Origin: an uncultured Bacteroidales bacterium
GTDB lineage: Bacteria; Bacteroidota; Bacteroidia; Bacteroidales; VadinHA17
DNA: 64,000 nucleotides
Assembly (NCBI GenBank): GCA_963831855.1
Contig: CAWHSA010000002.1
Span: 635,656-699,655, forward strand
Direction: 5' to 3'
Made by a program: the position numbers and the translations under genes. Every line of letters starts with the position of its first letter. Position 1 is the first letter of the stretch. Positions 41,020 through 64,000 of the stretch are shown piece by piece. The notes below the pieces were generated by a model. The model did not search any database, had not been told where the DNA came from, and worked only from the letters and a program-made list of their open reading frames with translations.

Positions 41020-41951
41020 AAATCCTTCTCACGGGATCGCCGGAGGAGCAAAGCGACGAAGGCAATCCCTCAAAAACAGGTCGTATAAATAATGTCTATT
41101 TCGCCCCCGGTTTCGCCGGGGGCTATTATATTGCGCCCCTTCCGGGGCTTGGAAAACCCTTCTATTCTATATACCCCGCGGGTATCCGGGGGCTATTTTA
41201 TTGCGCCCCTTACGGGGCTTGGAAAACCCTTCTATTATATACACCCCGCGGGTATCCGGGGGCTATTATTATTGCGCCCCTAACGGGGCTTGGAAAACCC
41301 TTCTATTATATACACCCCGCGGGTATCCGGGGCTATTTTATTGGGCCCCTAACGGGGCTTGGAAAACCCTTCTATTATATACGCCTCCGAGTATCCGGGG
41401 CTATTTTATTACGTCTTGGAAAATCTTTCTACCCGGTTTCACCGGGGGCATATATTGGGCTACGGGGCTTGGAAAACCCTTCTATCATATACACCCCGCG
41501 GGTATCCGGGGGCTATTTTATTACGCCCCTACAGGGCTTGGTAATTATTTATTCTGTCAACCCCCGGTTTCGCCGGGGCAGCTTTTTATGTTTTGAAATC
41601 CTTCTCACGGGATCGCCGGAGGAGCAAAGCGACGAAGGCAATCCCTCAAAAACAGGTCGTATAAATAATGTCTATTTCGCCCCCGGTTTCGCCGGGGGCT
41701 ATTATATTGCGCCCCTTCCGGGGCTTGGAAAACCCTTCTATTATATACGCCCCGCGGGTATCCGGGGCTATTATATTGGGCCCCTAACGGGGCTTGGAAA
41801 ACCCTTCTATTATATACGCCTCGGTATCCGGGGGCTATTTTATTACGCCCCTACAGGGCTTGGTAATTATTTATTCTGTCTACCCCCGGTTTCGCCGGGG
41901 CAGCTTTTTATGTTTTGAAATCCTTCTCACGGGATCGCCGGAGGAGCAAAG
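40986..41951. repeat. Nested non-coding repeat region: about 135-bp leader unit in three copies, flanking two arrays of about 70-bp GC-hairpin tandem repeats
   Basis: The leader (..CCGGGGCAGCTTTTTATGTTTTGAAATCCTTCTCACGGGATCGCCGGAGGAGCAAAGCGACGAAGG...CCCCCGGTTTCGCCGGGGG) occurs at about 40986-41120 and 41561-41696, identical by eye over about 120 nt. A truncated copy lies at 41883-41951. Tandem units occupy 41121-41560 (about 6 units, period 69-71 bp) and 41697-41882 (about 2.7 units). Confidence 0.9.
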
Positions 41952-53830: not shown

Positions 53831-54745
53831 TCAATTGAGTAAGTTTTCTTTTTTTGGTTTTTTAGGCTTTGCATCAATTTTTATGAGTATCAGGCTTATA
53901 ATAGCAAAAAGGTAATGTCCCCATACTCCTGCAAGGAGAATAGAGAGAGTGACAATCATCCAGGTTGGCGGCGTCTTGGTCCAGAGCGCCCTGTGCGTTT
54001 TGGGAACTGAGTAAGAAGTAGGAACACCCCATTTCCGGTTAACACTTTTTTCAACAGTTCCATAAGTCGGATTATCTTCAAAACGTGCAATTATTTTAAG
54101 GTTCCCTTCATTATCACCCGGCAGGTCCGACGGGAACTCAACCGAAACGGTACCATTATCATCAAGGGTGACTTCGGCAACCGGAAGAAGGCTGAACATT
54201 CTTGGAACATAAATCATTACTGATTCACCTGCAGCAGGAATATTCCTCTTTCCCATCAAGGCATATGCTTTCAGGGTGATAGTTTTAACACTGTCCATCT
54301 CCTCGAGAGTCATTTCAAGCTGAACATCCTTAACCTGTAATTCGGAAGTTGAGGCTTCAATTGTATCATTTCCTTTGTATTCAGAAACAAAAAACAATTG
54401 CCCTTCACTGTTAACAGGCAGTTTACTGATATTGTTTACCGGAATGTTTGCGATTCCTTTTTCATCGGTACGGACAGAAGCCAGGAGATCTTTCTTTACT
54501 CCATCAGAATAGAAATTTATTTCCATCCCCGGTAGAGGTAATTCCATTCTGTTCTCCGAATAGGTAAGAGTAGCTTTCAAAGAAGACTGATTATCGTTAT
54601 CTTTAAAGTACTGGAGCTGAAAATAAGGACTTATTTTACCGGTTTCCTGAGAAAATGAGGAAACAGACAGAGGCGATGCAAGGAACAGGAGGAAAAGTAA
54701 TTTAATAATTTTTTTTATCCGGAATCTCATAGTCTTACCTGTCAT
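53831..54745 (-). CDS. Secreted beta-sandwich-repeat protein with C-terminal TM anchor (unknown function)
   Basis: Signal peptide ..SVSSFS|QE, then two CarboxypepD_reg/Ig-like-looking segments (..DEKGIANIPV.., ..DDNGTVSVEFP..) and a TM helix WMIVTLSILLAGVWGHYLFAIISLILI. The start overlaps the NrfD-like stop by 4 nt. Confidence 0.55.
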   Translation of the reverse strand: MTGKTMRFRIKKIIKLLFLLFLASPLSVSSFSQETGKISPYFQLQYFKDNDNQSSLKATLTYSENRMELPLPGMEINFYSDGVKKDLLASVRTDEKGIANIPVNNISKLPVNSEGQLFFVSEYKGNDTIEASTSELQVKDVQLEMTLEEMDSVKTITLKAYALMGKRNIPAAGESVMIYVPRMFSLLPVAEVTLDDNGTVSVEFPSDLPGDNEGNLKIIARFEDNPTYGTVEKSVNRKWGVPTSYSVPKTHRALWTKTPPTWMIVTLSILLAGVWGHYLFAIISLILIKIDAKPKKPKKENLLN

Positions 54746-56049
54746 TTTAGAATTTCAACGTTATCCTTTTCATGCATTTCCGATATAGAAATAATCGGTG
54801 CAATTTTTGAGACAAGCATAAAAAGCATAGCAAATATTGATACACCTGCCATAGTAAGGGCCCACTCAATCCATGTCGGAGTATATTTTATCCAGTCGGG
54901 CCTGATATCCTGAATCGGAAGAAATGGAGTCTCAAGTGTTGGAATAACAATTATATAGCGGTTTACCCACAGGGCCAGAAGTGCAATAATTGCAGCAATT
55001 GTTATGTTTGGAATAGTCCTGAATTTAGGAACAGCAATTATTATTCCCGGCAAAAGGATCCCTATATAATTAGCAAAAATAAAGAGCCCGTAGTAATCAC
55101 TGAAAAGCTTATCAATAAGAATGGAGTCCATCTTTATTGATCCGTACCATTTTGTCAGGTAATCGCTGAAGGTGAAATATCCATAGAAAGCTGCTATTAC
55201 TGTCAGAAGTACGCCAACATTTACAAAATGGCGTTTGGTGATATACTCTTCAAGATGGTAGACCTTCCGGAATATCCACATCAGAATTATAAGTAGTCCT
55301 GTACCTGAAAAAACTGCTGCAATAACAAAGTACGGACCAAAAATCGTTGAATGCCATCCTGGCTGGAGTGTAACTCCAAAAATCCATGCCAGCACAGAAT
55401 AAACGATAATTGCAATTGCGATAATCATTGATGCCATAATCGTTCTGGCATTTGACAACAGCTTATGCTGCTTTTCCGTTCCGGTATAACCGAGCGACAG
55501 GATCTTATAAAGTTTCTTTTTCCAGGGCGCTACATTTAGTGCGGCATAATCACGGAGTATTGCAAAATCTTCAATGAATGAAAGATAAAGGTAAATAAAA
55601 CATCCTACGAGGTCAGTAGATATTGCAATTACGTCCCAGGTAATAGGTGATTGAATTCTTGGATGAATGAACAGAAAATAAAGTCTGTCAAGCCTTCCGA
55701 TGCAAAAGAAAATAAAAAATGGTCCGATTACCAGGGAGATGACTGTTATAAGTTCTGCCATTCTTATTACCGGCTTTCTCCAGCCCGTATGGAACAGATG
55801 CAACACCCCGGAAATAAGTGCTCCCGAATAACTCAGTCCCATAAAGAAAATGAAGTTTACGATATAAAAACCCCAAACGACATTATCTCGCATCCCCGTT
55901 ACAATATGACCTTTATCGATCTGGAGAATTAATCCGTATACTCCCAGTACAAAAAAAGCAAAAAAGATAAAGAAAGTTACCCACCATTTAGTGGATGTCT
56001 TCTCCAGCTCCGGAGTCAGGTCCTTTATAATTTTATCATCAATCTGCAT
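54742..56049 (-). CDS. NrfD/PsrC-family polytopic membrane quinol-interacting subunit
   Basis: 435 aa with about 10 TM helices. Its position immediately after a Tat-dependent 4-cluster ferredoxin fits the NrfCD/PsrBC/ActBC arrangement. Confidence 0.75.
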   Translation of the reverse strand: MQIDDKIIKDLTPELEKTSTKWWVTFFIFFAFFVLGVYGLILQIDKGHIVTGMRDNVVWGFYIVNFIFFMGLSYSGALISGVLHLFHTGWRKPVIRMAELITVISLVIGPFFIFFCIGRLDRLYFLFIHPRIQSPITWDVIAISTDLVGCFIYLYLSFIEDFAILRDYAALNVAPWKKKLYKILSLGYTGTEKQHKLLSNARTIMASMIIAIAIIVYSVLAWIFGVTLQPGWHSTIFGPYFVIAAVFSGTGLLIILMWIFRKVYHLEEYITKRHFVNVGVLLTVIAAFYGYFTFSDYLTKWYGSIKMDSILIDKLFSDYYGLFIFANYIGILLPGIIIAVPKFRTIPNITIAAIIALLALWVNRYIIVIPTLETPFLPIQDIRPDWIKYTPTWIEWALTMAGVSIFAMLFMLVSKIAPIISISEMHEKDNVEILK

Positions 56050-56074
56050 TTCCCCTGGATTTTATCAGTTCACA

Positions 56075-57040
56075 TCATCGTGGACCCGTATTATTATATC
56101 TCTTTTTAATGGATTCGTCATTATCTTCCAGTCCGCTTTCAACAGGAAACTGCCTTTGGACGGGAGGAAGGTAGTATACACTTGGAAGTGTTCCAAGCTC
56201 TTCCCTGTATCTGTATCCGGCCCTGTCAGTCATCAGTTTGCTGAACCTGACTGTTTCATCACCGTTTGTTATTGTATCTTCAAGAATATCACCAAAATAC
56301 AGCACGCCCATTGGACAAGCGGTTACGCATCTGGGCAATTCATTATTCCTGAGCTTATCGGCACAAAAAACACATTTGCCCACTGTTCCTTCAACCTGAG
56401 GAATATTAGTTTCGGGATCATAAACATGGCCGGGAGGTACTTTGACTTCCGGGTCTTTCCAGTTGAAGACCCTTGCAGAATAGGGACAGCCGGTCATACA
56501 AAACTTGCAACCGATACATCTCTGGTTATCGACCAGTACAATACCATCATCTCTTTTGAAAGTTGCTCCTACCGGGCAAACGCTGACGCACATCGGCTTG
56601 TCGCAATGGAAGCATGGACGAGGGAACCAGTATTTAGCTGTGTCTTTGTCATCCTGAAGGAGGAATAATTTCATCCATTCCTGGTCTTTTGGAAGAAGGT
56701 GACCTTCCTGGCAAGCATCGATACATTTCCGTGCATTTTTACATTTTGCCAGGTCGATAACCATTACAAACTTCCGGCCGGGGATTCCTTTTTTTGCCTC
56801 TGCCTTAAGCTCAGCAACACTTTTCTTTCCAGGCAGAATATCGTCCCTGTCAACTTCAACCAGCTTGCCTTCCGGGGAAAGCAGCTTCACCGTCTTACCT
56901 GATTTTGATTTTCCGGAATTACCATTAGTTACAGTACCAGAGAGTCCGGCAAGGGTAACACCTCCAATCCCGCCACCAACCCTCCTGATGAAATTACGCC
57001 TGGAAGATTTCCCCTGATTATCCTGATTTTTCTCTTTCAT
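56075..57040 (-). CDS. Tat-exported 4x[4Fe-4S] ferredoxin-type subunit (NrfC/DmsB/PsrB family)
   Basis: Twin-arginine signal SRRNFIRRVGGG. Cys clusters CKNARKCIDAC, CFHCDKPMCVSVCP, CIGCKFCMTGCP and CVFCADK...CVTACP. Confidence 0.88.
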   Translation of the reverse strand: MKEKNQDNQGKSSRRNFIRRVGGGIGGVTLAGLSGTVTNGNSGKSKSGKTVKLLSPEGKLVEVDRDDILPGKKSVAELKAEAKKGIPGRKFVMVIDLAKCKNARKCIDACQEGHLLPKDQEWMKLFLLQDDKDTAKYWFPRPCFHCDKPMCVSVCPVGATFKRDDGIVLVDNQRCIGCKFCMTGCPYSARVFNWKDPEVKVPPGHVYDPETNIPQVEGTVGKCVFCADKLRNNELPRCVTACPMGVLYFGDILEDTITNGDETVRFSKLMTDRAGYRYREELGTLPSVYYLPPVQRQFPVESGLEDNDESIKKRYNNTGPR

Positions 57041-57053
57041 TCCTTTCCTTCAA

Positions 57054-57671
57054 TTAATGATCTTCTGATTCATGGTAACCAGTTATGATACCCCTGAAAA
57101 GAGAAGAAGCTCTTGATCCCAGTGTGCACGTATAGATATGGATTACTAAAAAGACCGAAACAAAGAATCCGAGTGTTATGTGCAATATATCTGTCAGTAT
57201 CAGCCCGCTTACTCCGAATATCCTGTCAATTATGGTTTCGGGGAACATCAGTCCAAGTCCTGAAATAATAAGTAAAGGAAGGGCTACATACATTGCAAGG
57301 ACATATGAAAATTTCTGAAGCGGATTGAATTTCCGTTCCAATGTTACAGGAAACGGGTGTTTTTCTCCCCTGAACATGCCCCAGGCATAATATCTGAATT
57401 GCTTCCCAAGATCTGATATGAAATCTTTTTTACTGATCCTGTAATATTTACCATTGCCGGTAAAAAGATTCGCAACTACAAAAACTATATAATTAATTGT
57501 AATAATGGTCGCTGCTATATTATGCCACTTGACAGCTCTTGAAAATCCCACGAGAAGTGTATATTCCTGCTTATCGGTATACTGCATGCTGATCCCGGTA
57601 ATAATAAGAACTATTACCAGCAAAGCATTTAACAAATGCCACAATCTGACCCAAACCGGATATAGATACAT
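57054..57671 (-). CDS. Dihaem b-type cytochrome membrane subunit (HyaC/FdnI/PhsC-like cytochrome b561 family)
   Basis: 205 aa with 4-5 TM helices and conserved His residues in helices (RLWHLLNA, VKWHNIAA, DILHITLG, VIHIYTC). Confidence 0.7.
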   Translation of the reverse strand: MYLYPVWVRLWHLLNALLVIVLIITGISMQYTDKQEYTLLVGFSRAVKWHNIAATIITINYIVFVVANLFTGNGKYYRISKKDFISDLGKQFRYYAWGMFRGEKHPFPVTLERKFNPLQKFSYVLAMYVALPLLIISGLGLMFPETIIDRIFGVSGLILTDILHITLGFFVSVFLVIHIYTCTLGSRASSLFRGIITGYHESEDH

Positions 57672-57683
57672 TTTGCCAAAAAT

Positions 57684-58661
57684 TTATTTCCTGATCACCC
57701 TTATAAATATATGTATGCCAATAATCAGAACCAGCAATACAAAAATTCCCATGCTGATATAATTAAGATACTCATTGCGGTTCGCCCCGATAACAAAAGA
57801 CTCATTAAGAATAATGCTGTTCAAGAATCCGTTCCTGCGCTGCTCTTTTGACCTGAATTTGTACAGCGATGACATCAGCAATGAGTTCTGTGAATGGCAT
57901 TCGTTGCATTTTTTGACCGCCTTCTCCTTTGGATTGATCAGGTGTGAAACCAGGATGTCATTATTGACTTCCGAGTGACATTCAATGCATCTGACATTTT
58001 TAAAATGTGCCGCCTGATTCGGCAGCCATTCATGCTTCTCAAGAATATTGATCTCATCACGATCAGACAGAAGCTTGAAATGATTGTAGTTGGAATGACA
58101 ATTAAGACAAATATTGTTGTCGTATAAGATTGTCTCCTTGAGGTTGGTACTGTTCCTGATACTGATCCGGTAATCATGTGGTCCATGACATTTCCAGCAT
58201 GAAAATCCGACATCTTCCAGCTTGAAATGTATGCTCTTCTGATATTCAGCCTCAATTTCCTCAAACTTGAACCTGGCAAATTTTTCATCACCGCCATGAC
58301 AATCAATGCAGTTATACTGCTGTTCCATCCTTAGCTCTCCGGCATGAGGAAATTTTACATATTCCTCAGAGTGACAATCTGTACAGCTGAAGCTTTTGTG
58401 ATTGGACCGGTAAAAATCGTTCCTGATGACTATCTGTTCCGGAAACATCAATGCTCTAACCTTTTTACCCTGGCTCTCATTCGTGTATTCGTAGGTGTTT
58501 TGTCCATGGCATTTAAAGCACCTTTCATTAGCTTCTGTATACGGAGAAATGAAGTGTACAGTATCCGCCTGGCCCGGGTCTTGAGCATCCAGATTGTAAA
58601 AAGCGGTCTCAGCAGAAATCAGTGCAGACAGGATTAGAAACGGGCGGTTCAGAAATTTCAT
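57684..58661 (-). CDS. Seven-haem c-type cytochrome with C-terminal membrane anchor
   Basis: Signal peptide. Seven CxxCH motifs (CFKCH, CTDCH, CIDCH, CWKCH, CLNCH, CIECH, CNECH). C-terminal TM helix ISMGIFVLLVLIIGIHIFI. Confidence 0.88.
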   Translation of the reverse strand: MKFLNRPFLILSALISAETAFYNLDAQDPGQADTVHFISPYTEANERCFKCHGQNTYEYTNESQGKKVRALMFPEQIVIRNDFYRSNHKSFSCTDCHSEEYVKFPHAGELRMEQQYNCIDCHGGDEKFARFKFEEIEAEYQKSIHFKLEDVGFSCWKCHGPHDYRISIRNSTNLKETILYDNNICLNCHSNYNHFKLLSDRDEINILEKHEWLPNQAAHFKNVRCIECHSEVNNDILVSHLINPKEKAVKKCNECHSQNSLLMSSLYKFRSKEQRRNGFLNSIILNESFVIGANRNEYLNYISMGIFVLLVLIIGIHIFIRVIRK

Positions 58662-58678
58662 TCTTTCTTTTCCTGTTA

Positions 58679-59542
58679 CTAAAATCTTACAGTAATATTA
58701 AATCCAACAAGGAAATCACCTTTAGTAAAGTCATTTGTATTGAAAAGCAGATTTGTCTGATTAATTATCTGCGAATAATTGGCAACAAATACCTGGAACG
58801 TATGGGTTGCAGTTCCTATTTCCCACCCAAGAGATACATTTGGCATTGGCTGAACAGCCAGATTCTGCCTTGTAAGGAGCTGGTCATATTCAAGGATCAG
58901 GGAGTGATTGCCAAAAAGGTTTGCGCGGGCACCCGCAGAAATAGCGAAATTCAGGTTTTCATACCCTGATGAATCCGAATATACGGGAACAGAATTGAAA
59001 TATGCAACCGAAGGAGCCACCTGGAGTGATAACTTCTCAGTGATCTTGCGTGCGAGAATAAGCTGGTTAAAATAAGATAACCTGTGAATTTCACTGAATG
59101 ATTCTGACGGTCCGAAAGCGCTTGCAGGTCTCAGGTCAGCAACCATATTGCCATAATAGGAAAGTGAAACCGGCATGCTGTTGTTCTCTGTCTGCTGAAG
59201 TATCAATACTTTCCACTGAATATCCTGGAGCTTATAGTCTTTAGTGGTACCGATACCGAGCATTATCCTGTCAGTTATCCCGTAATTGAGACCAAGCCTT
59301 GTATTTGCAGCCCCATAAATTCCGAAAAGATTATGGTAGTTCTGGATAAGGCTGAACCTGTGATGGATCTCAAGTTCAAGTCCCCCCTTATATGGTGTTG
59401 CAACAGTATGATTATCAATAAGTATAGAGGTTCCAAATGTAAACCTTACCGGTTTTGAGCTTTTTTCTGTCTGGGTCTCTTCCTGCGAAAAAGCCGGTAC
59501 TAAAAAGAATGCTGTCAATAATAGAAGAAATGCCTTTTTCAT
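58679..59542 (-). CDS. Outer-membrane beta-barrel protein (family unassigned)
   Basis: Signal peptide ..LVPAFS|QEE, alternating hydrophobic beta-strand pattern throughout, and the C-terminal ..FLVGFNITVRF with a terminal Phe typical of OMPs. Confidence 0.7.
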   Translation of the reverse strand: MKKAFLLLLTAFFLVPAFSQEETQTEKSSKPVRFTFGTSILIDNHTVATPYKGGLELEIHHRFSLIQNYHNLFGIYGAANTRLGLNYGITDRIMLGIGTTKDYKLQDIQWKVLILQQTENNSMPVSLSYYGNMVADLRPASAFGPSESFSEIHRLSYFNQLILARKITEKLSLQVAPSVAYFNSVPVYSDSSGYENLNFAISAGARANLFGNHSLILEYDQLLTRQNLAVQPMPNVSLGWEIGTATHTFQVFVANYSQIINQTNLLFNTNDFTKGDFLVGFNITVRF

Positions 59543-59572
59543 TGTATCTGGTTTTTTAGTGATTATCCTGAA

Positions 59573-59953
59573 TTAGTTATTTTTTGCACCCTGTTTTATC
59601 CAGGTAAGCACTTTAAGCTTATCGGTATCAGTTGACCTGGAAATATGGCTCCCTGAAGTCATCTTAACATAAAGTAAGCTCGATTCGGCCGCGTTGGTAT
59701 TTAAATAACTTCCGCCTGTAAGAGAAGCATATGATTTTCCGGCACGGAGATCAGGTTGTTGAGATCCTCCGTGACATCCGCTGCAATTTGTGGTAAAAAT
59801 TGGCTGGATATCTGTTGCAAAAAATAAAATTGTATTTTGATCGATAACAGGCGGGGTATACTGATATTTCTCACAGGATGACAATACAGCAATGGAAGCA
59901 GGCAGAATAACTGCATAAATAAAGTTGCATAGTTTTTTTCTTTTCAGGCTCAT
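59573..59953 (-). CDS. Small haem-binding lipoprotein (PSCyt-like CxxCH domain)
   Basis: Lipobox AVLSSC. IQPIFTTNCSGCHGGSQQPDLRAG resembles the planctomycete-type cytochrome c domain. First gene of the eight-gene operon. Confidence 0.65.
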   Translation of the reverse strand: MSLKRKKLCNFIYAVILPASIAVLSSCEKYQYTPPVIDQNTILFFATDIQPIFTTNCSGCHGGSQQPDLRAGKSYASLTGGSYLNTNAAESSLLYVKMTSGSHISRSTDTDKLKVLTWIKQGAKNN

Positions 59954-60171: not shown

Positions 60172-61950
60172 TCAGAACTTATAACTATTATCCTCTATAA
60201 GCTTATCAGCAATCCTGCGTCTGGCTTCCTTCACATTTACTCCTTTTACTCCGGAAAGATTGTCAATTGCGGTTGATAAAACTTCTGCCTCCGTACAGGA
60301 CCCAAATGAGTTGACCGCATCATACCCCGACTTCCTGATAATATTAGCAGTGTCATAAATATTGACATCAAGGATATCCCTGTAAACCAGTCTGCTACCG
60401 TTTAGCATTTCCAATTTACTGACTCTAAGGAGAAGAGATTCTGACACATAGGTTTCCATCATCATGTCGGCAATATTGTTCAGGACTTCTTGTTCATTAA
60501 CAATCTTCTTTTCAAAATGTTTAACCGCACCATTAACACAAAGGAGTATAGCATTTTTAAAATTCCGTATATACCTGATTTTTTCGTCAAAGTAATCTTC
60601 ACCTTTAACTGCCCCTGATGTTACCTTATCGGCTTCATTGTAAAGCTTTTCAGCTTTCCCGAAAAGGTCAAAATCGCCCTTCATTGCCCGTTTCATTGCA
60701 GTATCGACTACCAGAAGGCGGTTAATTTCATTTGTTCCCTCGAAAATTCTGTTAATTCTGGAATCGCGGTAACCTCTCTCCACGTCCAGTTCGGCGGAGT
60801 ACCCCATACCACCATGGATCTGGACAGCTTCATCTGAAACAAAATCGAGCATTTCTGATCCAAAAACTTTGAGTATCGCAGCTTCAACTGCATAATGACT
60901 TATTGCTTCAATAGAGGCTCGTCCCGTATCGCCGCAATCAACCTTCAGCAACTCCATCATGTCATCAACATCCCTGCTTACCCTGTAAACGGCTGATTCT
61001 GAGGCGAAAAGTCTGATCACCTGGCTGGCAAGCTTATATTTTATTGCCCCGAATGTTGAAATGAAAACGCCAAACTGTTTTCTTTCGTTTGCATATCTGA
61101 CCGAATCTGTTACTGCCTTTTTTGCGGCACCAAGAACATTTGCACCAAGCTTCAGCCTTCCCATATGAAGTATGCTTAAGGCTACTCTGAATCCCTCGCC
61201 CCTTTTCGCCAGGAGGTTTCCGACCGGTACTTTCACATCAGTGTAGTAGATCTGTGCAGTTGACGAACCCTTTATTCCCATCTTATGTTCATCAGGACCC
61301 ACAACTACTCCCGGCATGGTCCGTTCAACTATAAATGCACTGAGGACCCTGTCGTTATCTATTTTTGCAAAGACAACCTGGGTGTCAGCGAAACCGGCAT
61401 TTGTAATCCACATTTTCTGGCCGTTGAGGATATAGTGTTTCCCGTCTTCAGATAACCTGGCATTTGTTTTCCCTGAGTTTGCATCGCTTCCGGCACCGGG
61501 TTCAGTCAGACAGTATGCTCCTATCAGTTCGCCGGTCGCCAGTTTTGTTACATAACGCTCCCGCTGGTCCTTGGTTCCATAATACATTATTGGCAAGGTC
61601 CCGATACCGCAATGAGCCATATAAGCTACTGAAAAAGAATAACCTGCCCCGGTAGTTTCAGCAACAAGCATCTGTGTAACGAATGATTGCCCGAATCCGC
61701 CGAATTCTTCAGGAATTGAAATCCCCATCATGCCAAGTTCACCGCATTTTTTCAGGATGCTTTTCATCAGGTCCCTGTCGCCTTGCTCAATTTCTGTCAT
61801 TTTCGGATAAACCTCTGTTTCCAGGAAATCACGGCATGTCTGGGCGATCATACGCTGTTCCTCGTTAAACTCTTCGGGGATAAAAACATCTTTTGATTCA
61901 ACTTCGGCTACAAGAAATTCACCGCTTTTCAGGAGTTTTCTGCTTTCCAT
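60172..61950 (-). CDS. Long-form acyl-CoA dehydrogenase family protein
   Basis: 592 aa with ACAD N/M/C domains (..YCLTEPGAGSDA.., ..GGMGYS..) plus a C-terminal extension of about 180 aa. Confidence 0.88.
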   Translation of the reverse strand: MESRKLLKSGEFLVAEVESKDVFIPEEFNEEQRMIAQTCRDFLETEVYPKMTEIEQGDRDLMKSILKKCGELGMMGISIPEEFGGFGQSFVTQMLVAETTGAGYSFSVAYMAHCGIGTLPIMYYGTKDQRERYVTKLATGELIGAYCLTEPGAGSDANSGKTNARLSEDGKHYILNGQKMWITNAGFADTQVVFAKIDNDRVLSAFIVERTMPGVVVGPDEHKMGIKGSSTAQIYYTDVKVPVGNLLAKRGEGFRVALSILHMGRLKLGANVLGAAKKAVTDSVRYANERKQFGVFISTFGAIKYKLASQVIRLFASESAVYRVSRDVDDMMELLKVDCGDTGRASIEAISHYAVEAAILKVFGSEMLDFVSDEAVQIHGGMGYSAELDVERGYRDSRINRIFEGTNEINRLLVVDTAMKRAMKGDFDLFGKAEKLYNEADKVTSGAVKGEDYFDEKIRYIRNFKNAILLCVNGAVKHFEKKIVNEQEVLNNIADMMMETYVSESLLLRVSKLEMLNGSRLVYRDILDVNIYDTANIIRKSGYDAVNSFGSCTEAEVLSTAIDNLSGVKGVNVKEARRRIADKLIEDNSYKF

Positions 61951-61984
61951 TATTATTAACTATTTGGTTTACATTATTATAAAA

Positions 61985-62139
61985 GGTGTTCCTGGTTCCT
62001 GGTTCCTGGTTCCTGGTTCCTGGTTCCTGGTTCCTGGTTCCTGGTTCCTGGTTCCTGGTTCCTGGTTCCTGGTTCCTGGTTCCTGGGGTTCCTGGTTCCT
62101 GGTTCCTGGGTTCCTGGTTCCTGGTTCCGGGTTCCGGGT
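61985..62139. repeat. Heptanucleotide microsatellite (GGTTCCT)n, about 21 units, 13 perfectly tandem
   Basis: Perfect 7-mers run from 61994 to 62084. Further units are interrupted by GG and G insertions, and two GGTTCCG variants close the tract. It lies between the Fe-S oxidoreductase stop (62189) and the acyl-CoA dehydrogenase ATG (61950), ending 35 bp upstream of that ATG. Confidence 0.97.
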
Positions 62140-62188
62140 TAAAACAATTAGCAACTGGTAACCAGTAACAAGAAACATTAACTCAGAT

Positions 62189-64000
62189 TTACAATCCCAT
62201 CGCTGAAACTATTAATTCTGCAATATCCATATTCTTTACATCTCCTTCCCTGTTTTTGTATTTAAGGCCATCTGTCATCATTGTCATGCAGAACGGACAG
62301 GCTGTTGCGATTACGGAGGCTCCTGATTTCAGCGCTTCTTCAGTCCTTTCGATGAATATTTCCTTCTCTCCTTTTTCTGCCTCCTTAAACATCTGGCCTC
62401 CACCCGCACCACAGCATAATGCAAAGCTTTTGTTCCTTTGCATCTCAACAAAATTACCGGATATCTTATTAATTATTGAGCGGGGTTCATCATAAATATC
62501 ATTAGCTCTGCCAAGATAACACGGATCATGATAGGTTACAGATATGTTTTTCATGGAAGCATTATCAATGTTCAGCTTCCCTTCCCTGATCATCTTATCA
62601 AGGAACTCTAAATAATTGATAACCTCAAAATTGCCATCAAGGTCGGGGTATTCATTTTTAAATACATTGTAGCAATGCGGGCAGACAGTTATTATTTTCT
62701 CTACTGAATATGCTTTAAGTGTAGAGATTACCTGCATTGCCTGCATCTGATACAGCATCTCGTTGCCTGCACGCCGTGCGGGATCGCCGGTGCAGGTTTC
62801 TTCTTTTCCAAGCACCGCATAGCTCACCTTAAGATGATTTAGTATTTTCGAGAATGCTTTTACCACTTTTTTATACCGGTCGTCAAAAGCGCCAGCACAG
62901 CCTGCCCAGAAAAGGTATTCAGGCTTTTCACCCTTTGCAAAAAGATCTGACATAACAGGGACTCCCTCAGCCCAGTTCAGCCGGTCTTCTGCAGAATACT
63001 GCCATGGGGCTCCATTATTCTCAATATTGTTAAAAACAGCTTTAAGCCCGCCGGGAGCTGAAGCCTCTTCGAGGACGAGGTACCTGCGGATATCAACAAT
63101 GAGTGAAGGATGATTGATATTTACAGGGCATTCTTTTGCACACGCATTGCATGTTGTGCAGGCCCAAAGCTCTTCTTCTGAAATGTAATCTCTTAATAAT
63201 GAACGATTATCAGAATAATCCCTTCCATTTTTTACCATCAAGGGACCTTTTTCCTTCATCCTTTCACGAAGATCCATCATTATCTTTCTGGGTGATAACT
63301 TTTTCCCTGTGATGTTTGCCGGGCACACTGATGTGCACCTTCCACATTGTGTGCAGGAAAGGGAATCGAAATAATTCTTCCACGACGAGTCTTCGACATC
63401 CCTGACCCCGAATCTCTCAACCGGCATGTCAGCTGGCTGTGCAGCAAAAGCAGTATCCGGATCGAGCATTAACTTTACTTCCCTTGTTATGCTTTCCATA
63501 TTTGTCAGCTTGCCAAGGGGCCCGAGCCTTGAAAGAAAAACATTAGGCACGGATAAAAAAACATGAAAATGCTTTGAATAGGGCAGGTAATTAGCAAAGA
63601 AGAAGATGAGGAGGATATGGCTCCACCAGGAAATTTCATACATCACCCTGAAATTTTCTGCATCATAATCCGGGAAAAGGTTAATCAGCATCCCTGCCAC
63701 AGGATATATCTTTTTTACCGGTAATCCTTCAGAAAGGTTATAACCAAGATACCCGGTATTCATTGCCATCAGGGATATCATCAGTAAAAGAATAAGAGAC
63801 AATGCAATATTAGCATCGATATGCGTCATCTTTTTCATCTCAATTCCTTCAAAGCGCCTGACATGGAAAAAAAGTCTCCGCGAAAGGAATATTATTATGG
63901 AAAGAGAGACAAGCAATGCAAATATGTCACCTGAAGCCATAAGGAGATCATAAACCGGACCCAGGAATCTCAGTACTTTGTCTGTACCTGCCAGGCCGTC
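62189..64000 (-). CDS. Membrane-anchored (Fe-S)-binding oxidoreductase, HdrD/GlpC/DsrK-like with CCG domains (probably 5'-truncated by window edge)
   Basis: N-terminal TM helices, two ferredoxin motifs (CTQCGRCTSVCP, CTTCNACAKECP) and two cysteine-rich CCG-type regions (..VCPHCY.., ..LCCGAGGG.., ..ACPFCM..). The reading frame stays open upstream of the listed Met (63940) to position 64000. Confidence 0.75.
   Translation of the reverse strand, partial: DGLAGTDKVLRFLGPVYDLLMASGDIFALLVSLSIIIFLSRRLFFHVRRFEGIEMKKMTHIDANIALSLILLLMISLMAMNTGYLGYNLSEGLPVKKIYPVAGMLINLFPDYDAENFRVMYEISWWSHILLIFFFANYLPYSKHFHVFLSVPNVFLSRLGPLGKLTNMESITREVKLMLDPDTAFAAQPADMPVERFGVRDVEDSSWKNYFDSLSCTQCGRCTSVCPANITGKKLSPRKIMMDLRERMKEKGPLMVKNGRDYSDNRSLLRDYISEEELWACTTCNACAKECPVNINHPSLIVDIRRYLVLEEASAPGGLKAVFNNIENNGAPWQYSAEDRLNWAEGVPVMSDLFAKGEKPEYLFWAGCAGAFDDRYKKVVKAFSKILNHLKVSYAVLGKEETCTGDPARRAGNEMLYQMQAMQVISTLKAYSVEKIITVCPHCYNVFKNEYPDLDGNFEVINYLEFLDKMIREGKLNIDNASMKNISVTYHDPCYLGRANDIYDEPRSIINKISGNFVEMQRNKSFALCCGAGGGQMFKEAEKGEKEIFIERTEEALKSGASVIATACPFCMTMMTDGLKYKNREGDVKNMDIAELIVSAMGL

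Follow-up and report, generated by a model that had tools for sequence, protein, structure and literature searches.

Does a long heptanucleotide array wedged between two co-oriented genes control the gene that follows it, or is it a repeat of a widespread class whose effect on that gene is incidental? The question is raised by a tract of GGTTCCT units in the genome of an uncultured Bacteroidales bacterium. The tract lies within a stretch of 64,000 nucleotides (hereafter the window), where it fills most of the spacer between genes for a membrane Fe-S oxidoreductase (FeS) and an acyl-CoA dehydrogenase (ACAD). A sequence-only reading of this DNA had proposed a contingency locus, in which slippage of the tract switches or tunes expression of the dehydrogenase. 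We find that a dedicated contingency switch for ACAD is possible but not supported. The tract is probably a lineage-specific heptanucleotide long SSR (STRR-like), one of an intergenic kind in Bacteroidales, that would have grown by slippage and would affect ACAD only incidentally.

Organization of the array, its spacer and the flanking genes

The locus contains the following features, in order of window coordinate.

60172..61950, minus strand: ACAD gene, 592 aa, last of the cluster (Pfam Acyl-CoA_dh_N, _M, _1 and Acyl-CoA-dh_C)
61951..61987, minus strand: AU-rich 37-nt leader (ACCUUUUAUAAUAAUGUAAACCAAAUAGUUAAUAAUA) directly 5' of the ACAD start codon (from the sequence)
61988..62081, minus strand: pure part of the array, in which AACCAGG (plus strand, GGTTCCT) is repeated 13 times without change, and a partial AAC (TRF, unit decomposition)
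62082..62140, minus strand: degenerate part of the array next to the loop, 8 units (unit decomposition)
62141..62148, minus strand: AT-rich loop ATTGTTTT between inverted arm and array (from the sequence)
62149..62169, minus strand: short 5' arm of three degenerate inverted units, GTTACTG GTTACCA GTTGCTA, partly complementary to the array (inverted match)
62170..62188, minus strand: 19 nt from the TAA stop codon to the first inverted heptamer unit (from the sequence)
62189..64000, minus strand: membrane Fe-S/CCG-domain oxidoreductase gene, 3' part, third of the cluster (Pfam CCG, 2.2e-31, and 4Fe-4S dicluster)

Pfam domains bear out the co-oriented Fe-S oxidoreductase and ACAD genes that the sequence-only reading had placed on either side of the tract. 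The FeS product contains two CCG domains and one 4Fe-4S dicluster domain; its full gene encodes 690 aa and extends beyond the window (G000:C2:697844-699916, where G000 is the label of the host genome and C2, like similar labels below, one of its contigs). The FeS stop codon (TAA) occupies 62189-62191 and the ACAD ATG lies at 61950, both genes being read from the minus strand. Upstream of FeS and on the same strand, Pfam assigns ETF alpha and beta genes (etfA and etfB), with spacers of 137 and 26 nt. Within the 313-nt divergent region upstream of etfB is a motif, TTTG...TATATTTG, which we take to be the Bacteroidetes -33/-7 promoter pattern. The simplest reading of the gene order etfB-etfA-FeS-ACAD is a four-gene operon whose last two cistrons are separated by the tract, which would then probably be untranslated, and synteny, spacer lengths and promoter motifs together point to co-transcription of the cluster.

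The array, at 61988-62140, is the single strong short-period array of the window (TRF; period 7, 21.4 copies, 95% matches, score 265) and accounts for 64% of the 238-nt FeS-ACAD spacer (61951-62188). On the gene (minus) strand it comprises 21 complete units and then a partial AAC. The tally is 17 AACCAGG, two AACCCGG and one each of AACCCAGG and AACCCCAGG, arranged as two AACCCGG, two AACCAGG, AACCCAGG, two AACCAGG, AACCCCAGG, thirteen AACCAGG and AAC. The 13 ACAD-proximal units (window positions 61991-62081) are perfect and contiguous, and perfect 7-nt periodicity spans 61988-62086; three units are irregular, and the number of C or G in a run is all that sets them apart. A 14-mer of two units, GGTTCCTGGTTCCT, has 17 matches at the tract with at most one mismatch allowed, compared with 0.03 expected from 100 shuffles. 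From the end of the array to the ACAD ATG we count 37 nt, or 35 nt by the coordinates of the sequence-only reading. That reading had the copy number, position and spacer length (238 nt) right, as well as the uninterrupted run of 13 perfect units and the distance of roughly 35 nt to the ATG.

As sense RNA, the array is repetitive and contains no U (A 41%, C 31%, G 27%). The tract is the longest heptamer array of the genome. An exact 21-mer of the array occurs at one locus only in the whole genome, and the tract is therefore not a multi-copy element in the strict sense.

Two other interpretations of the repeat were considered and set aside. Three ORFs of 60-69 aa span the tract and would encode PGSWFLV- or QEPGTRN-type repeats; these frames exist only because the unit carries no stop codon in them, and they are interrupted by indel units. 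A G-quadruplex of the GGGNATC type involves a run of at least three G in every unit, and the GGTTCCT unit carries a GG run only.

The inverted arm that precedes the array lies 8 nt from it and shows 3 mismatches in 14 nt when compared with the array unit. The predicted RNA fold of arm, loop and first units is weak (-19.9 kcal/mol, z = -1.2), no better than that of shuffled sequence, and the fold of the whole spacer RNA is no more stable than its shuffles (z = -0.05) and places the GG dinucleotides in 2-bp stems, not in loops. The sole fold that stands out at the locus is that of the DNA tract alone, which folds through GG/CC pairs (-23.8 kcal/mol, z = -4.65). At the other end of the array, the minus strand continues from the partial AAC through ACCTTTTATAATAATGTAAACCAAATAGTTAATAATA to the ATG. 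This 37-nt leader resembles, in length and composition, the whole spacer of most relatives. The degenerate, loop-proximal part of the array is presumably older than the pure part.

The tract in relatives and heptamer arrays in the genome

The nearest relatives of the host are MAGs from fen, soil and sediment. We found no sequence from the same species, and the exact ACAD protein is absent from the contig records searched; the closest ACAD is 84% identical among GTDB genomes and 83% identical among metagenome contigs. Orthologues that are 74-84% identical keep the same upstream neighbor. The FeS to ACAD order is conserved at 68 loci. The spacers there measure 27 nt at the median (IQR 24-60), short enough to suggest co-transcription of the two genes. 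GGTTCCT units are absent from all 68 of these orthologous spacers, all of which belong to other species. The short, tract-free spacers at these loci indicate that the tract is a lineage-specific insertion or expansion and not a conserved regulatory feature of ACAD. The idea that the tract provides conserved regulation of this gene accordingly finds no support among the 68 orthologous spacers. One other species carries (CAGTTGG)5.7 in the orthologous spacer, and several relatives have small hairpin elements of the GCCCCCTTCAGGGGGTTGGGGGCAAA type there. To judge from these sequences, the FeS-ACAD gap has been hit independently by other repeats and hairpin elements in other lineages.

Heptamer arrays are common in the host genome. 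Counting arrays of four or more copies across all 3.94 Mb, TRF detected 59 with period 7, compared with 4 of period 6, 16 of period 8 and 16 of period 9. The other heptamer units are diverse and include GTTCAAG (19 copies), GAGTGGT (20), ATTTCGG (20), AGTTCAA (14), GACTTCC (14) and GTTTCAG (13). In the relatives, we drew on an unbiased sample of 186 loci (826 kb) that had been chosen for the ACAD gene, not for repeats; period 7 accounts for 20 of its arrays and period 8 for five, and periods 6, 9 and 10 are unrepresented. The sequence-only reading's view that tracts of this length are rare in bacteria finds no support in these counts; in the host genome and its clade they are not rare. Several of the period-7 arrays in the relatives' sample abut the start or stop of ACAD.

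The period-7 arrays of the host are concentrated outside genes. By crude ORF-based gene calls that assign 89% of the genome as coding, 51 of the 59 are non-coding, compared with 10.6% non-coding DNA overall (p = 1e-41). Of the 50 intergenic arrays, 41 have co-oriented genes on both sides (p = 0.002 relative to the fraction of intergenic bases; p = 0.03 relative to the fraction of spacers), with a median gap of 19 nt from the upstream stop codon and 35 nt to the next start. At the FeS-ACAD locus the inverted arm likewise begins 19 nt past the stop codon. The sense strand contains more A than T in 29 of these 41 arrays (p = 0.012).

The arrangement of arm, loop and array also recurs. We searched the 91 arrays of period 7-9 for an inverted partner, defined as at least two complementary units within 100 nt, using reversed or complemented units as controls; 12 of the 91 arrays have such a partner, as against 2 of 91 controls (Fisher p = 0.01). 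By eye, seven loci of the host genome (C2:100760, C2:362433, C4:759545, C5:215899, C7:134150, C6:517342 and the FeS-ACAD locus) follow one layout: stop codon, G/T-rich arm, AT-rich loop, A/C-rich arm and A-rich leader. Several of the seven share the unit family of the tract, which can be written (GGTTNCT)k - loop - (AGNAACM)n. At nine non-coding loci in the host genome GGTTNC[TA] is found in tandem, compared with two matches to the control, and the genome has three arrays of the AACCNGG type, all in sense orientation. Loops and flanks differ between the unit-family loci, and no shared core was seen by eye.

The unit family reaches beyond the host. Of 100 congeneric species other than the host, 10 contain (GGTTCCT)3 with at most one mismatch, at loci that have no relation to ACAD, compared with one genome for the reversed control pattern. 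An array in one relative (G073) repeats the layout of the tract: 11 units of AGGAACC type are preceded by a loop of 9 nt and, before that, by four inverted units. Its predicted fold is stable relative to shuffles (-41.3 kcal/mol, z = -3.4). In another relative (G094), 12 units face 17 complementary units; this inverted arrangement is evident from the sequence, but the fold is no better than shuffles (z = -0.76). Neither the recurrence of the unit family across species nor the A-rich bias would be expected from purely neutral slippage; they may point to some seeding mechanism or to selection acting on orientation.

Comparison with described heptamer repeats

Among prokaryotic long SSRs with units of 5-11 nt, heptamers are the most abundant, with slippage of the polymerase as their proposed source (Mrazek 2007, as relayed in PMC4679880 and PMC4692102). 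As described in these accounts, prokaryotic long SSRs, including the cyanobacterial STRR, resemble the tract in their 7-nt unit, excess of period 7, intergenic position, variety of different units within one genome and proposed slippage. The tract fits the heptanucleotide long-SSR class in its tandem length, in the period-7 excess of its genome and in its intergenic placement between co-oriented genes. Unlike the STRR-type SSRs described, it is found in an uncultured environmental Bacteroidales and inside what we predict to be a tight catabolic operon. The unit GGTTCCT/AGGAACC was not found in the accounts of heptamer SSRs given in PMC4679880 and PMC4692102.

A parallel in genomic placement comes from the GGGAATC arrays of Xanthomonas campestris and X. 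axonopodis and the GGGGAYT arrays of Nostoc/Anabaena, about 90% of which are intergenic (Rehm et al. 2015, PMC4692102). These arrays lie nearer the end of the upstream ORF than the next start, are mostly flanked by co-oriented ORFs, often form convergent inverted pairs capable of stem-loop formation and vary in length between related species; one array of 26 GGGGATT units lies within an operon, between pecE and pecF (PMC4692102). The arrays of the Bacteroidales host are similarly intergenic, close to the upstream ORF end and flanked by co-oriented neighbors, and some have inverted pairs. Several distinctions are evident. The Xanthomonas and Nostoc units contain GGG runs and form G-quadruplexes in vitro, whereas GGTTCCT has GG only. 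One unit dominates the Xanthomonas genome, whereas dozens of units coexist in the host genome. Finally, 83% of Xcc arrays are conserved in Xac, whereas the tract has no counterpart in any relative, all of them much more distant.

Direct repeats of TAACTGA have been reported from marine Beggiatoaceae, cyanobacteria and five Bacteroidetes (MacGregor 2015, PMC4679880). Like the tract, they are intergenic and lie in 'forward' orientation upstream of start codons, and the genes downstream of them share no common function. Moreover, in Gramella forsetii and Aequorivita sublithincola, long heptamer arrays occupy positions at which close relatives have short spacers free of repeats (PMC4679880), much as at the FeS-ACAD locus. 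The unit differs from that of the tract, however, and the Beggiatoaceae sets mostly consist of 2-6 copies within a few nucleotides of the start, whereas the tract has 21 copies that end 37 nt upstream. In addition, CsrA, a candidate proposed for the TAACTGA repeats, is absent from the host.

Alternative explanations and proposed origin

The alternative that fares best is a tunable element like that of Haemophilus influenzae hmw1A and hmw2A, where (ATCTTTC)n forms a hairpin in the transcribed 5'-UTR that RNase III cleaves, and expression changes in inverse proportion to the number of repeats (PMC12721329). By analogy, the array and its inverted arm would pair as an intercistronic RNA hairpin, subject to processing by RNase III or other activities, and unit number would set the output of ACAD relative to Etf and FeS. 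The two are alike in several respects: the heptamer SSR is upstream of a gene, the predicted transcript contains a possible partner arm for hairpin formation, the 13 perfect units would allow unit number to change, and RNase III is encoded in the host genome. However, copy-number variation, transcription, hairpin and cleavage are experimental results for hmw, whereas the tract is known from sequence, with a hairpin no more stable than shuffles. The hmw genes also encode a surface adhesin of a host-adapted pathogen; the gene next to the tract specifies a metabolic dehydrogenase of a free-living anaerobe, a housekeeping redox enzyme and not a surface or restriction-modification function. The lack of the tract in all 68 orthologous spacers and the positions of some 59 similar arrays beside unrelated genes likewise weigh against tuning of ACAD, and we consider such a role unlikely. 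A related proposal is that arm-bearing heptamer arrays constitute an actively propagated, functional class in Bacteroidales, with a dedicated seeding mechanism or binding factor behind the recurrence of the unit family and its layout in about 10% of the species of the genus, and that here an hmw-like hairpin would tune ACAD against Etf/Etf-quinone oxidoreductase. To this we assign a low probability.

Equally doubtful is an origin from a small mobile palindrome of REP or MITE type whose arms consist of heptads; its insertion behind the stop codon would have been followed by expansion of one arm, and the tract would be its footprint. REP/BIME elements share with the tract small size, a potential for hairpin formation and an intergenic position after stop codons, often inside operons. 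The GGTTNCT/AGNAACC arms and the order of stop, arm, loop and arm at several loci of the host and in other species are consistent with such an element, as are the repeated gains of other small hairpin elements, such as GCCCCCTTCAGGGGGTTGGGGGCAAA, in the FeS-ACAD spacer of relatives. REP elements, however, have a conserved sequence of about 35 nt and an associated RAYT transposase, whereas the tract has tandem heptamer arms of variable number and sequence. Neither terminal inverted repeats nor a target duplication nor any conserved core outside the repeats could be recognized, and loops and flanks differ between loci. This explanation concerns origin only, and it is compatible with the role that we favor for the tract at present.

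A further possibility is that the transcribed array serves as a multivalent RNA platform, in which about 21 GGA/AGGAACC motifs would titrate ribosomes or an RNA-binding protein such as a CsrA-like, cold-shock, S1 or RRM protein. The U-free, repetitive sense RNA and the uniform sense orientation of the three AACCNGG-type arrays would suit such a platform, and, according to the review in PMC4679880, CspB has been reported to bind heptamer repeats at one protein per unit. The search for CsrA (PF02599) returned no match at E <= 0.01 in the 98.7%-complete host genome, with E. coli, B. subtilis and T. maritima all positive as controls; this absence argues against a GGA sponge. No Rfam family matched at E <= 1 except a chance lncRNA match outside the tract (E = 0.95). 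The GGA sponge advanced by the sequence-only reading thus lacks both a CsrA partner and an Rfam match, and the predicted 2-bp stems would hold its GG dinucleotides out of loops. Translation initiation in Bacteroidales is not Shine-Dalgarno-based, and the anti-Shine-Dalgarno sequence of Bacteroidetes ribosomes is sequestered, making AGGA unlikely to recruit 30S subunits. Moreover, the confinement of the exact unit to a single genomic locus leaves the platform without a regulon, and the wide variation of units between arrays argues against one sequence-specific binder. We regard this explanation as very improbable.

Still less credible is a promoter-geometry switch, in which the tract would separate an activator or UP site from an ACAD-specific promoter, such that 7-bp steps alter both spacing and helical phase. 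Each step corresponds to about 240 degrees of helix rotation, and repeats upstream of the Neisseria nadA promoter act through spacing and helical phase. Nevertheless, sequence scans of the FeS-ACAD spacer detected no sigma-70-like promoter and, on either strand, no Bacteroidetes TAnnTTTG motif; just 37 nt separate the tract from the ATG, and the DNA preceding the tract belongs to the end of a gene in the same orientation. Together with the gap of about 27 nt in relatives and the operon motif upstream of etfB, these results speak against the promoter-spacing effect that had been suggested from the sequence. The scan for intrinsic terminators returned 0 terminator-like sites in 61700-62500; a CCUUUUAUAAU stretch is present 3' of the array, but no compact stem precedes it.

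Finally, the irregular units carry an extra C or G in a homopolymer run, the usual error type of long reads, and could be consensus errors of a 7-contig MAG that was itself probably assembled from long reads, but an assembly or consensus artefact that collapsed or inflated the copy number or introduced false indels is extremely improbable as an account of the tract, which is set 70 kb in from the end of its contig (768 kb), has both flanks syntenic with relatives and is matched by comparable arrays in many independently assembled genomes.

The explanation that we favor remains a lineage-specific long SSR. In this model, replication slippage of one arm would have expanded the array, with slipped, GG/CC-paired hairpins perhaps assisting, and the youngest, still perfect units would be those at the ACAD-proximal end. 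It is plausible that the 13 perfect units are prone to slippage, and copy number probably drifts between strains; the evidence that points to slippage and drift is the purity of the repeat. The array would be transcribed within the operon mRNA and would leave intact the AU-rich leader used for translation initiation. The tract could affect the coupling between the FeS and ACAD cistrons, and any such effect on ACAD expression would be incidental: the untranslated gap would be lengthened and would contain a weak hairpin of slippery register, as opposed to a selected on/off switch.

On its own, the tract is a typical though unusually long representative of a kind of repeat that has been on record since the 1990s and still lacks an explanation. 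It nonetheless provides a clean natural test case: the ancestral spacer of about 27 nt is known, the flanking genes are conserved, and the predicted four-gene operon encodes products that have to work together. These properties make it a good locus at which to measure copy-number change and cistron ratios. Beyond this locus, the recurrence of the unit family across species and the shared hairpin layout add to the evidence against heptamer arrays of this kind being simple products of random slippage.

Inverted heptamer pairs and spacer hairpins

Hairpins armed with heptamers, that is, with period-7 arrays, also occur at other loci of the source genome, whose contigs are numbered C1, C2 and so on. 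At C6:517000-517430, two tRNA genes are flanked by such hairpins, and a 16S rRNA gene lies just downstream:
Hairpin 1, within C6:517000-517430: (AGTTCAA)3...(TTGAACY)3
Hairpin 2, within C6:517000-517430: (GATTTYG)5-loop-(AATCCGG)3.6
Stable-RNA operons are therefore also hosts of heptamer-armed hairpin elements.

Among the loci of relatives around the acyl-CoA dehydrogenase (ACAD) gene (L numbers), L042 has, at 1438-1661 (contig C20 of relative G094), a large pair of inverted heptamer arrays that takes up the gap between two co-oriented ORFs: (GGTTGCT/GGTTCCT)12 - 21 nt - (AGCAACA)17. Similar inverted pairs in L133 and L172 stand immediately 3' of the ACAD stop codon. In several related species, the intercistronic gap from the FeS oxidoreductase gene to ACAD contains a dispersed hairpin element, GCCCCCTTCAGGGGGTTGGGGGCAAA, also found there as CCCCC...GGGGG variants (L051, L132, L014, L013 and L133); one species has a duplicated copy in this gap.

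Other repeats of the window and genome

The strongest tandem repeats in the genome are arrays of 31-36-nt units with a common core, GGGGTTGGGGTGAGGTC, repeated as many as 15 times with 96-99% identity (C1:93100-93902, C5:566810-567894, C2:29041-29487 and about 15 other loci). These arrays are a class distinct from the heptamers. The longest short-period array is the octamer GGCACAGA, with 27.8 copies at C4:35799-36021; a two-copy relative, GGCACAGAGGCGCAGT, is present at the window's start (167-197).

We also found Shine-Dalgarno-like arrays, (AAAGGAG)n and (AAAGGG)n, at C4:258708-258773, C1:110725-110775, C5:822212-822242 and C6:335826-335870. The purine strand is the sense strand at all four loci, and start codons follow 5-63 nt downstream of each. 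Such arrays are odd because Shine-Dalgarno initiation is largely unused in the host's phylum.

Within the window, positions 41050-41900 hold tandem units of about 70 nt in two blocks:
41116-41410: block 1, 4.2 copies
41692-41863: block 2, 2.5 copies
Small GC hairpins are dense in both, for example GCCCC-TTCC-GGGGC and CCCCCGGTTTCGCCGGGGG. An identical 45-nt flank precedes each block, at 41050 and 41625, and because of this common flank the entire segment looks duplicated.

Gene cluster downstream of the dehydrogenase gene

Downstream of ACAD, a same-strand cluster spans window positions 54742-59953 (C2:690397-695608) and encodes six products:
small CxxCH protein
DUF5777 beta-barrel
multihaem cytochrome c (325 aa)
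cytochrome b-like membrane protein
4Fe-4S protein
large polytopic membrane protein
Of the three proteins, out of six, that were run against Pfam, the DUF5777 protein and the cytochrome c gave matches, whereas no family was hit by the small CxxCH protein. The cluster resembles a module for respiration or extracellular electron transfer.
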